Assembly (NCBI RefSeq): GCF_016903815.1
Contig: NZ_CP069973.1
Strand: one strand, 5' to 3'
Length of the DNA: 64,000 nt
Origin: Escherichia coli
GTDB lineage: Bacteria; Pseudomonadota; Gammaproteobacteria; Enterobacterales; Enterobacteriaceae
Shown here: piece after piece, positions 49,701 through 52,700 of the stretch
How positions within the stretch are numbered: the first letter of the stretch is position 1
Layout of the letters: each line of letters starts with the position of its first letter
Position numbers: made by a program

Positions 49701-52700
49701 GGTGGAAGCCGTGCAGTCGATTGAAGACATTAAACTGCTGCGCGCTGAACAGCGTTTTCAGAATCAGTGGAATCACACTAACGACGTGGCCTCGTCCATC
49801 AGCATGAAGCAACGTTTTCTCACCGGGCTACTGCTCACCTGGACCCAGGAAGTGCAGTCCATCGTCTACGTGGTGGTGCTGTTGGTGGGCTGCTTTATGG
49901 TAATGAACGGCGACATGACCACCGGCGCGCTGGTCGGGACGACGATCCTGGCTTCGCGCACCATCGCGCCGCTGTCGCAGATATCCGGCGTGCTCTCGCG
50001 CTGGCAGCAGGCGAAAGTAGCGCGTAATGGCCTTGATGAACTGATGAAGCGCCCGGTGGATCAGCCGGAACACGGCAAACTGGTGCATAAAGCGGTGCTG
50101 CACGGCAATTATCAGTTCAGCAACGCTATCTTTTATTACGACGAAGAAGAGAAAATTGCCGATGTGGCGATTGGCAAACTCAACATTCAGGCCGGAGAGA
50201 AAATCGCCATTCTTGGGCGCAACGGCGCGGGTAAATCAACGCTACTGCAAATGCTCGCCGGAATGCGTATCGCCCAGCAGGGGCAGGTGCTGCTGGATAA
50301 CATCAGCATCGGTCAGCTTGATCCGGCGGATCTGCGCCGCGACATGGGGCTGCTGAGCCAGACCGGGAGACTCTTTTTCGGTTCGCTGCGGGAAAACCTG
50401 ACGATGGGGATGCCGGAAGCCAGCGATGAAGATATCGAACGCGCGTTAACCCTCAGCGGGGCGCTGCCCTTTGTGCAGAAGCAGAAAAACGGCCTCAACT
50501 ACATGATTCAGGAAGGGGGATTTGGCCTCTCTGGTGGTCAGCGGCAAACGCTGCTGCTGGCGCGGCTACTCATCTCTCAACCCAATATCGTGCTGCTCGA
50601 TGAACCCAGCGTCTCGCTGGACGAAATGGCGGAAGCGTATTTAATCGAACAACTGAAACAGTGGATTGGGCATCGCACGCTGGTCATCGCCACTCACCGC
50701 ACGGCGATGCTGCAACTGGTGGACCGCATTATCGTGATGGATCAGGGGCGGATTGTGATGGATGGCGCGAAAGAGGCCATTTTGCGTGAACAGAGCGAAC
50801 CCACGACGCGACGGGTGGTGTTGCAGGAGAAGAATAAGGGGTCTGCCGCATGAATGGACAACTGCAATACAACCGTGGCCTGACTGAACCCCGCCTGCCG
50901 CGTTCGGCGCTGGCGGTACGCGTTACCGCTGTGATGCTGCTCTGTTTTCTCGGCTGGGCGTGGTACTTCCAGCTTGATGAAGTCACCACCGGCAGCGGCA
51001 CGGTAGAACCTTCCGGGCGCGAACAGGTGGTGCAGTCGCTGGAAGGCGGAATTCTGTATCATCTCGACGTCAAGGTTGGCGATATTGTTGAACAGGGCCA
51101 GCCGCTGGCGCAGCTTAACCGCACCAAAACGGAATCCGACGTCCAGGAAGCAATGTCGCGGCTGTACGCGGCGCTGGCAACCTCGGCGCGGCTGCGGGCG
51201 GAAGTGAGTAATAAACCGCTGGTCTTCCCTGACGAACTGAATAAATTCCCCGAACTTATCGAGTCGGAAACGGCGTTGTACAACACTCGCCGCGACGGGT
51301 TGAACAAAGCCACCACCGGGCTGACGCAGGGGATTAGTCTGGTCAACCGTGAACTGGCGATGACCCAGCCACTGGTCAAACAGGGGGCGGCGAGCAGCGT
51401 CGAAGTGCTGCGCCTGCAACGTCAGGCCAATGAACTGGAAAACAAACTCAGCGACGTGCGCACGCAATACTACGTACAGGCGCGCGAAGAGTTAGCGAAA
51501 GCCAATGCGGAAGTAGAAACCCAGCGTTCGGTGATCCGTGGACGGGAAGACTCCCTCACCAGGCTCAACTTTACCGCGCCGGTGCGAGGCATTGTTCAGG
51601 ACATTGACGTCACCACGGTTGGCGGCGTTATTGCCCCCGGTGGTAAACTGATGACCATCGTGCCGCTGGATGAGCAACTGCTGATCGAGGCAAAAATCTC
51701 CCCGCGCGATGTGGCGTTTATCCATCCGGGGCAAAAATCGCTGGTGAAAATAACCGCCTACGATTACTCCATCTACGCCGGCCTGCCGGGAGAAGTGGCG
51801 GTGATATCACCAGACACCGTGCAGGATGAAGTGCGGCGCGATGTTTATTACTATCGGGTGTACATTCGCACTTTCAGCAACCATCTGGAAAATAAACATA
51901 AACAGCAGTTTCCGATATTTCCCGGCATGGTGGCGACGGTCGATATCCGCACCGGCAAAAAAAGCGTGCTGGATTATCTGTTGAGACCCTTTAATAAAGC
52001 ACAGGAGGCGTTGCGCGAACGATGAACATTAGCGATGTAGCAAAAATTACCGGCCTGACCAGCAAAGCCATTCGCTTCTATGAAGAGAAGGGGCTGGTGA
52101 CGCCGCCGATGCGCAGCGAAAATGGTTATCGAACCTACACGCAGCAGCATCTCAACGAACTGACCTTACTGCGCCAGGCGCGCCAGGTGGGCTTTAACCT
52201 GGAAGAGAGCGGCGAACTGGTGAATCTGTTTAACGACCCACAGCGTCACAGCGCCGATGTAAAACGGCGCACGCTGGAGAAGGTAGCGGAGATCGAACGG
52301 CACATTGAGGAGCTGCAATCCATGCGCGACCAGCTACTGGCGCTGGCGAATGCCTGCCCTGGTGATGACAGCGCCGACTGCCCGATTATCGAAAATCTCT
52401 CCGGCTGCTGTCATCATCGGGCGGGGTGAAAATCAGTTAATCCCCGTTTGCACCGAAAGAATATGCTGCAAACTTTCTACCATTATGCGCCCCGATTGAA
52501 ATAAGCCTTCCTGGATTTCGTTGTTAACATTCACAGCGTGAACCAGGGAGGCTAATAACACCACTTGCAAGAAGGCAAAAATAAACGCACCGATAATCAT
52601 AATATGCGTCAGGGGGATTTTCCTTTGCTCCTTCATTTTAAATAACCCACAAACTGACCTTCCTTCATTAAGGCGACTTTTCCCGTGTGGTGATAAACAA

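Follow-up and report, generated by a model that had tools for sequence, protein, structure and literature searches.

The overlap of hlyD28 and cueR in Escherichia coli as the probable seam of an old rearrangement that left a copper regulator gene without its own upstream region

We analyzed a stretch of 64,000 nucleotides from Escherichia coli (RefSeq assembly GCF_016903815.1, contig NZ_CP069973.1), referred to here as the window, and focused on the place where cueR, a core copper regulator gene, adjoins a large accessory cluster for type I secretion. The stop codon of the last cluster gene, the periplasmic adaptor gene hlyD28, shares 4 nucleotides with the start codon of cueR. We consider it probable that this ATGA overlap marks the join of an old rearrangement, through which cueR lost its original upstream region, and we extend the same degree of confidence to the whole account of insertion, deletion, and leader origin given below. 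The cluster and cueR are laid out as follows.

26506..27801, plus strand: tolC28, a TolC-family channel (TIGR01844, 416.8 against a cutoff of 225)
27910..48687, plus strand: siiEA, a giant BapA/SiiE-like adhesin of 6,925 amino acids (aa) (open reading frame [ORF] list and RefSeq annotation)
48691..50853, plus strand: hlyB28, a type I secretion ABC permease/ATPase (TIGR03375, 833.7 against a cutoff of 693.1)
50850..52025, plus strand: hlyD28, a type I secretion periplasmic adaptor of 391 aa ending in AQEALRER (TIGR01843)
52022..52025, plus strand: the ATGA overlap, formed by the cueR ATG at 52022-52024 and the hlyD28 TGA at 52023-52025
52022..52429, plus strand: cueR, a Cu(I)-responsive MerR-family regulator (NF007590, PDB 1Q05)

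The cluster is complete, with a TolC/ABC/HlyD set and the substrate gene siiEA lying between tolC28 and hlyB28. All genes from tolC28 to cueR are co-directional, with gaps of 108, 3, -4, and -4 nucleotides (nt). In enterohemorrhagic E. coli (EHEC) O157:H7, the cluster is known as O-island 28 (OI-28), a tolC28-rtxA28-rtxB28-hlyB28-hlyD28 type I secretion and RTX adhesin system that is regulated by RstA and Ca2+ (PMC12758282, 2025). That study does not mention cueR and speaks of the “acquisition” of OI-28. The siiEA gene is one intact ORF in the strain studied here; the O157:H7 copy is an annotated pseudogene with an internal stop and corresponds to the two “RTX” ORFs, Z0609 and Z0615, of the OI-28 paper.

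Positions 52000-52029 of the window read cacaggaggcgttgcgcgaacgATGAacat. The first-pass annotation of this DNA had placed the stop codon of an HlyD-family gene and the start codon of cueR at these positions and had described cueR as joined head-to-tail to the island; the sequence and the ORF coordinates (391 codons for hlyD28 and 135 for cueR) bear this out, with zero intergenic space. CueR scored 308.6 against the NF007590 equivalog profile (cutoff, 244) over residues 1 to 135 of 135, and PDB 1Q05 matches it residue for residue from M1 over the same span; therefore, the cueR start codon is correctly assigned. HlyD28 scored 322.1 bits against TIGR01843 (cutoff, 208.65), with residues 185 to 391 aligned to columns 217 to 422 of the 422 in the profile. 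The 4-nt overlap is also annotated by RefSeq in strain 7/2, whose sequence over this stretch is 100% identical to that of the window, and is present in the annotation of O157:H7, where hlyD28 is Z0635 and cueR is Z0636. The hlyB28/hlyD28 pair carries the same ATGA overlap at 50850-50853. In bacterial operons, no class of gene overlap is more common than ATGA. The type of overlap is thus ordinary, and the unusual part is that a core regulator is joined to an accessory gene.

The join is placed at the natural end of the adaptor. Among 120 HlyD28 homologue clusters, 115 are 391 aa long and 118 end in EA[L/M]RER. Orthologous clusters lie at other loci in Pseudocitrobacter and Enterobacter, where the HlyD28 orthologues (84% identity) are followed by cho or an EAL-domain gene, not by cueR, and stop with TAA or TAG directly after the last Arg. 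In Escherichia, that last Arg codon is CGA, and its wobble base is the A of the cueR ATG; the TGA stop of hlyD28 is made of cueR's own TG and the A of its second codon (Asn). Every genus has the TGA trinucleotide at the cueR start (nTGAAT). Based on these comparisons, the join appears to be exact to the base, with HlyD28 keeping the length and C terminus typical of its family.

The following features define the left side of the locus.

21115..23619, minus strand: copA (gene list)
23667..23687, minus strand: CueR operator in the copA promoter, ACCTTCC-N7-GGAAGGT, the sole perfect match in the window
23693..52021, plus strand: Escherichia-specific block between the copA promoter and the cueR ATG, holding glsA, ybaT, tolC28, siiEA, hlyB28, and hlyD28 (left edge uncertain by ~4 nt)
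23882..24814, plus strand: glsA (gene list)
24817..26109, plus strand: ybaT (gene list)

We scanned for CueR in one genome per species and obtained 80 loci. At most non-Escherichia loci, copA and cueR are divergent neighbors ~107 nt apart, an arrangement seen in Salmonella, Citrobacter, Enterobacter, Klebsiella, Kluyvera, Yokenella, and others; glsA, ybaT, and hlyD are absent from between the two at every cueR locus scanned outside Escherichia. The outgroup copA promoter and CueR operator read aggttaaaccttcc-N7-ggaaggtcaag, then ggggaaat, and then the [A/G/T]TG start of cueR. In this layout, 9 nt separate the copA -35 hexamer from the cueR start, and the operator ends ~9 nt from that start. 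The operator sequence of the window, an element that we take to be the copA promoter, sits directly upstream of cueR in the six genera named. The assignment of 23667..23687 to the copA promoter also follows PMC1526738. Homology between the window and the outgroup spacer ends after ggtcaag at 23692, and a scan of the window found no second CueR operator near cueR or in hlyD28. Because the operator is conserved and homology stops so close to it, ~28.3 kb (23693..52021) appears to occupy what in the outgroups is a stretch of 9 nt from the copA -35 hexamer to the cueR start. In the ancestral state, copA and cueR would have been divergent neighbors with this short gap, and the glsA-ybaT and tolC28-siiEA-hlyB28-hlyD28 genes would have come into exactly that gap in the Escherichia lineage.

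Separately, we observed that copA and cueR are likewise split apart in several Citrobacter, Klebsiella, and Kosakonia genomes (L010, L013, L014, L025, L031, and others; positions ~5860-6000). In these, unrelated sequence comes as close as ~10 nt to the cueR start codon, and the CueR operator of L013 is cut by it. It therefore seems that different genera have repeatedly taken up insertions in the short interval from the copA promoter to cueR.

Most E. coli genomes lack the cluster, and three features of the window bear on how it was lost.

26121..26153, plus strand: predicted intrinsic terminator of ybaT, with a 9-bp stem and a 5-nt loop (hairpin, 26121-26143) followed by CTTTGTCTTT (terminator scan)
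26140..51926, no strand assigned: 25,787-bp segment missing in K-12-type genomes (BLAST of locus L005, from Escherichia sp. MOD1-EC7003, against the window and alignment A1)
51927..52021, plus strand: last 95 bp of hlyD28, kept upstream of cueR in island-negative E. coli in frameshifted form (alignment A1, pseudogene in the Prokaryotic Genome Annotation Pipeline [PGAP])

We surveyed 5,426 complete E. coli genomes and called the island present where window positions 51500-52500 were matched over at least 80% of their length. This was the case in 959 of the 5,426, and all other genomes match only from 51927/51930 to the cueR stop codon. The K-12 ybaT-cueR junction, used as a query, was collinear at ≥97% identity in 4,458 of the 5,426 (82%, including K-12), so there is essentially one K-12-type junction. 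The same junction, 26139|51927, is common to these genomes and a cryptic-clade Escherichia. The missing segment comprises the tail of the 3' arm of the ybaT terminator and its T-tract, tolC28, siiEA, hlyB28, and the first 92% of hlyD28; no microhomology or repeats were found at the breakpoints. What remains encodes the 32-residue tail of HlyD28, which is the family-conserved C terminus. Relative to the window, the K-12 remnant has one 3-nt and one 1-nt deletion (alignment A1), and PGAP annotates it as a frameshifted, N-terminally truncated pseudogene. It thus matches an intact gene at its 3' end, has a broken frame, and occurs with a single shared junction, as in a deletion scar. Because the retained codons are those of the conserved adaptor C terminus, the K-12 sequence appears to derive from a complete adaptor gene, and not the reverse.

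The first-pass annotation had posed a choice between precise insertion of the island and a clean deletion in K-12, to be decided by aligning the adaptor end with the K-12 ybaT-cueR region. Only the last 95 bp of the adaptor gene align there, frameshifted. K-12 as a deletion derivative stands; the either/or does not, as both events would have occurred, at different depths. Nor was the deletion clean, given the remnant and the loss of part of the ybaT terminator. We propose that 82% of E. coli lost the island through a single illegitimate deletion of 25.8 kb, the right end of which spared the 95 bp that carry a ribosome-binding site (RBS) and the left end of which clipped the terminator. We infer that selection filtered the deletion end points.

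The left end of the deletion may have mattered for transcription. In the window, the predicted terminator stem has 6 G-C pairs out of 9 and a folding energy of -16.6 kcal/mol (z = -5.2 versus shuffled sequences); its K-12 counterpart folds no better than shuffled sequences (z = +0.5). The K-12 deletion starts inside the 3' arm and removes the T-tract. The terminator is thus predicted to be intact in the window and destroyed in K-12, and because the deletion takes the end of the 3' arm and the T-tract, it would have opened the way for ybaT transcription into cueR besides sparing the RBS. Two reports fit this reading, namely, a 2006 operon prediction of ybaS-ybaT-ybbI and the finding that ybaST and cueR go up in parallel under acid stress (PMC9628877). 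A search of the literature for a cueR promoter or a ybaT-cueR operon returned just the 2006 prediction. We also considered whether the copper sensitivity of an MG1655 ybaST deletion is a simple polar effect on cueR and rejected this, as ybaS alone complements. Rfam searches found no RNA family near either junction.

A transcription start site (TSS) for cueR has been mapped in K-12 at position 512,925; it is supported by 31 reads and gives a leader of 292 nt (Kim et al. 2012, supplementary file 2). Its surroundings can be located in the window.

25892..25942, plus strand: counterpart of the K-12 cueR TSS region from -50 to +1, inside ybaT (TSS equivalent, 25942)

The 51-nt K-12 promoter string was located exactly at L001 2750-2800 and, with one substitution, at these window positions. 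K-12 cueR would therewith be transcribed from inside ybaT, with a leader made of the 3' end of ybaT and, proximal to cueR, the hlyD28 remnant, and read-through from glsA-ybaT probably adds to it. As a side observation, window positions 25546-25562 are the counterpart of a strong sigma-54 site found by chromatin immunoprecipitation sequencing inside K-12 ybaT, oriented in the sense direction at a distance of 679 nt upstream of cueR (PMC4591121). At one base, the copy in the window departs from it, with TGGCGC in place of TGGCAC. This site is a possible further source of cueR transcripts.

For island carriers, we used transcriptome sequencing (RNA-seq) data of EDL933, at low depth and in 11 conditions. 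Mean values in reads per kilobase per million mapped reads (RPKM) were 133 for tolC28, 30 for Z0609, 0.8 for Z0615, 1.5 for hlyB, 3.2 for hlyD, and 8.8 for cueR. The hlyD and cueR signals were correlated (Spearman coefficient, 0.78), and cueR exceeded hlyD 2.7 times, on very low counts. Because the signal climbs from Z0615 toward cueR, the data suggest that cueR transcription starts within hlyB28 or hlyD28 rather than by read-through of the whole 25 kb. Most likely, in our reading of these sparse data, such internal starts are joined by some read-through from upstream. An earlier proposal was that cueR is co-transcribed with the island or has a promoter in the adaptor gene. The EDL933 data allow for a start within the cluster, and the part that fails concerns K-12, where the mapped TSS lies 292 nt upstream in ybaT, not in the remnant.

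It is unlikely that island carriers express cueR solely from a long transcript of the RstA-dependent tolC28 promoter, with no internal start. The co-directional genes with their small gaps would allow it, as would the fact that no terminator is predicted between hlyD28 and cueR, and tolC28, the rtx genes, hlyB28, and hlyD28 all drop in an rstA mutant (PMC12758282). However, the RNA level in EDL933 falls from tolC28 to Z0615 and then rises again up to cueR. The internal stop of O157:H7 siiEA would favor polarity, yet cueR serves a core function.

Slightly less likely still is a cueR promoter within the last 95 bp of hlyD28, which would make the promoter, not the RBS, the reason for retention of the remnant in K-12. 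All 4,458 island-negative genomes do keep the remnant, and the K-12 junction creates a TATTAT hexamer. Against this, the remnant has no acceptable -35/-10 pair in any lineage, and the TSS mapped in K-12 lies at -292, outside the last 95 nt. Moreover, E. albertii keeps only ~55 nt, and conservation is limited to the 28 nt next to the ATG.

Those 28 nt contain the translation signal on which our preferred reading, retention of the cueR RBS, depends.

52003..52008, plus strand: Shine-Dalgarno (SD) sequence of cueR, AGGAGG, 13 nt before the ATG and encoded by the Q-E-A codons of hlyD28

The predicted duplex with the anti-SD sequence is strong at the end of Escherichia hlyD28 (-10.3 kcal/mol) and weak at the same position in the orthologues that are not followed by cueR (-3.0 kcal/mol in Pseudocitrobacter and -0.2 kcal/mol in Enterobacter). 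The ancestral cueR SD, GGGGGA, has a duplex energy of -10.5 kcal/mol and is lost in Escherichia. The 28 nt before the cueR ATG are identical in all seven Escherichia sequences examined, including E. albertii. In E. albertii, they are non-coding, and identity of cueR to the window at third codon positions is just 0.66. Because all 28 positions are kept there even so, this stretch is probably under constraint, which points to a role as the translation-initiation region.

We therefore regard it as improbable, more so than either alternative above, that the overlap is functionally meaningless, a neutral by-product of where a rearrangement happened to end, with any upstream sequence serving cueR translation equally well. 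The frequency of ATGA overlaps in operons and the TGA intrinsic to the first codons of cueR in all genera speak for such neutrality. Contrary to it are the identity of the non-coding E. albertii stretch in comparison with cueR third positions, the fact that two independent deletions both spared the cueR-adjacent stretch, and the presence there of a strong SD that the unlinked orthologues lack.

In our preferred reading, cueR of island carriers would be translated as the terminal cistron of the cluster, from an RBS inside the last codons of hlyD28. The arrangement has what is found in coupled pairs, a co-directional ATGA overlap with the SD inside the upstream ORF, and hlyD28 and cueR are possibly coupled by termination and reinitiation in these strains. 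Such coupling cannot be a strict requirement, since 82% of strains have a broken upstream ORF and K-12-type strains make CueR. We had considered the Gln of the AQEALRER terminus as unique to Escherichia and rejected this, since two other clusters have it; the Gln-bearing cluster that is not followed by cueR reads CAA GAG, not CAG GAG.

Other Escherichia lineages allowed us to place the island in time. E. whittamii and Escherichia sp. E1V33 each have the full cluster with the identical overlap, and Escherichia sp. MOD1-EC7003 has the K-12 junction. E. albertii has a junction of its own, in which homology to the window ends at 26126 and is followed by ~109 nt of unrelated sequence and then by 55 nt corresponding to window 51967-52021. 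A divergent E. coli (L006) has a mosaic, internally deleted island with a frameshifted hlyD28. Because these independent paths of decay all keep the stretch adjacent to cueR, we argue from the comparison of sequences that the island was present in the common Escherichia ancestor. When judged as a horizontally acquired island, the cluster shows absence at this locus in distant relatives and atypical composition; it has no mobility signatures at its borders and is not absent from sister lineages. It is very improbable, and already contradicted, that K-12 represents the ancestral state and that O157:H7-like strains recently gained the island by a precise insertion upstream of cueR, because, although the island is absent from 82% of genomes, has a G+C content of 57 to 64% versus ~54% in its flanks, and is spoken of as an acquisition in PMC12758282, K-12 carries the frameshifted last 95 bp of the adaptor gene directly upstream of cueR, the island is complete in E. 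whittamii and has left an independent remnant in E. albertii, and there is no integrase-like ORF in the window annotation, no tRNA in the window, and no flanking repeat.

Two of these genomes have further peculiarities. The MOD1-EC7003 locus (L005 4088-4584) is without glsA, and ybaT follows copA after ~500 bp. The divergent E. coli is SCPM-O-B-8794 (L006 2100-6000), and its island is a patchwork of half of tolC28, pieces of siiEA and hlyB28, and the frameshifted hlyD28. This patchwork is a third, stepwise route of island decay.

Several points weigh against this account. Scans of the plus strand for sigma-70 consensus matches of at least 9/12 found none in hlyD28, hlyB28, or the K-12 spacer, and a relaxed sigma-70 scan gave weak, non-conserved hexamer pairs only. 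The K-12 TSS comes from a single high-throughput data set with 31 reads. The EDL933 counts (0 to 29 RPKM) are very low and too small to decide the matter, and the higher cueR signal could reflect RNA stability, not a separate start. The spacing of 13 nt between the SD and the ATG is longer than optimal. Since Gln at the SD-forming codon is also found in two non-Escherichia adaptor clusters, one of them not followed by cueR, the SD may be no dedicated adaptation. E. fergusonii was not among the species recovered in the genome scan, which limits the estimate of insertion depth within the genus, and glsA-ybaT and the secretion cluster may have arrived together or separately.

A broader idea, which we hold only tentatively, is that the OI-28 deletion rewired cueR. 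The clipped terminator would have attached it to the acid-resistance glsA-ybaT unit and the promoter inside ybaT in K-12-type strains, as opposed to an RstA- and Ca2+-controlled secretion cluster in O157:H7-like carriers. If true, this would account for the increase of cueR together with ybaST that is seen in K-12-type strains under acid stress (PMC9628877), and two allele classes would regulate the copper sensor differently, so that published phenotypes of hlyD28 or OI-28 deletions could partly be cueR effects. It suggests, as a hypothesis, a strain-dependent link of copper sensing with acid resistance or adhesin secretion.

Public annotation already contains the genes, the island, and the K-12 pseudogene call, and an ATGA overlap with an embedded SD is a standard operon feature. 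In the literature that we searched, we did not find it stated that copA and cueR were split at the start codon, that the K-12 cueR leader stems from an adaptor gene, that the ybaT terminator is clipped, or that the island is ancestral. Our account would explain the origin of the K-12 cueR upstream region as the fossil of a secretion-adaptor gene, with transcription entering from inside ybaT. It also reverses the usual view of OI-28, which appears to have been ancestral to Escherichia and then to have disappeared from most E. coli, not to have been gained by EHEC. In practice, deletion of hlyD28 or OI-28 can remove the RBS or the transcription of cueR, so adherence and colonization phenotypes need a cueR control. 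The relevance is mainly to work on cueR regulation or on OI-28 mutants.

The other side of cueR is variable as well. A second variable segment, window 52430-55038, lies flush against the cueR stop codon and contains the following ORFs.

52433..52636, minus strand: small ORF
52633..53055, minus strand: small ORF
53109..54125, minus strand: YadA-family trimeric autotransporter, 338 aa
54492..54854, plus strand: 120-aa ORF

K-12 is without this segment, and there the stop codons of cueR and ybbJ abut with 0 nt between them. Strain E04 has the downstream segment but not the upstream island; therefore, the two polymorphisms are independent, and cueR is a ~500-bp core piece between two variable regions. 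Between the 120-aa ORF and ybbJ, on the minus strand at 54912-54989, we detected the Rfam family naRNA4 (RF02564, a nucleoid-associated RNA derived from repetitive extragenic palindromic elements; 71.9 bits). The cueR region of the window (51500-52500) is unusually divergent for an E. coli core gene, with 96% overall identity to K-12 and 88% at third codon positions; only 101 of 5,424 E. coli genomes are ≥99% identical to it, yet K-12 and the strain studied here encode the same CueR protein. Of the sigma-70-like matches in the region, ATGACA-18-GATAAT (10/12) scored best; it is located on the minus strand at 52385-52414, within the 3' end of cueR and antisense to that gene, and K-12 conserves it (L001 3455-3484).

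Four known systems invite comparison. OI-28 of O157:H7 has the same locus, the same genes, and the identical 4-nt overlap as the window and differs in that siiEA is split or pseudogenized there. PMC12758282 treats it as acquired; our data indicate an ancestral island that most E. coli have lost. The K-12 ybaT-cueR stretch is annotated like other PGAP pseudogenes with a missing N terminus and a frameshift. Unlike ordinary gene remnants, it appears to be kept for the translation-initiation region of its neighbor, a gene of essential function, and it forms part of the 292-nt cueR leader. With coupled cistrons of the trpB-trpA type, hlyD28 and cueR share a co-directional 4-nt overlap and an SD in the upstream coding sequence. 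In contrast to that type, the partners are functionally unrelated, an accessory adaptor and a core metal regulator; the downstream gene works without the upstream ORF in 82% of strains, and coupling here is a conjecture from the arrangement. Finally, the copA-cueR pair of Salmonella, Citrobacter, Klebsiella, and other Enterobacteriaceae (PMC1526738) has orthologous copA, CueR operator, cueR, ybbJ, and qmcA, with the cueR start at the same position; unlike that pair, Escherichia has ~28 kb between the operator and cueR, and its ancestral SD appears to have been replaced by one encoded within hlyD28.

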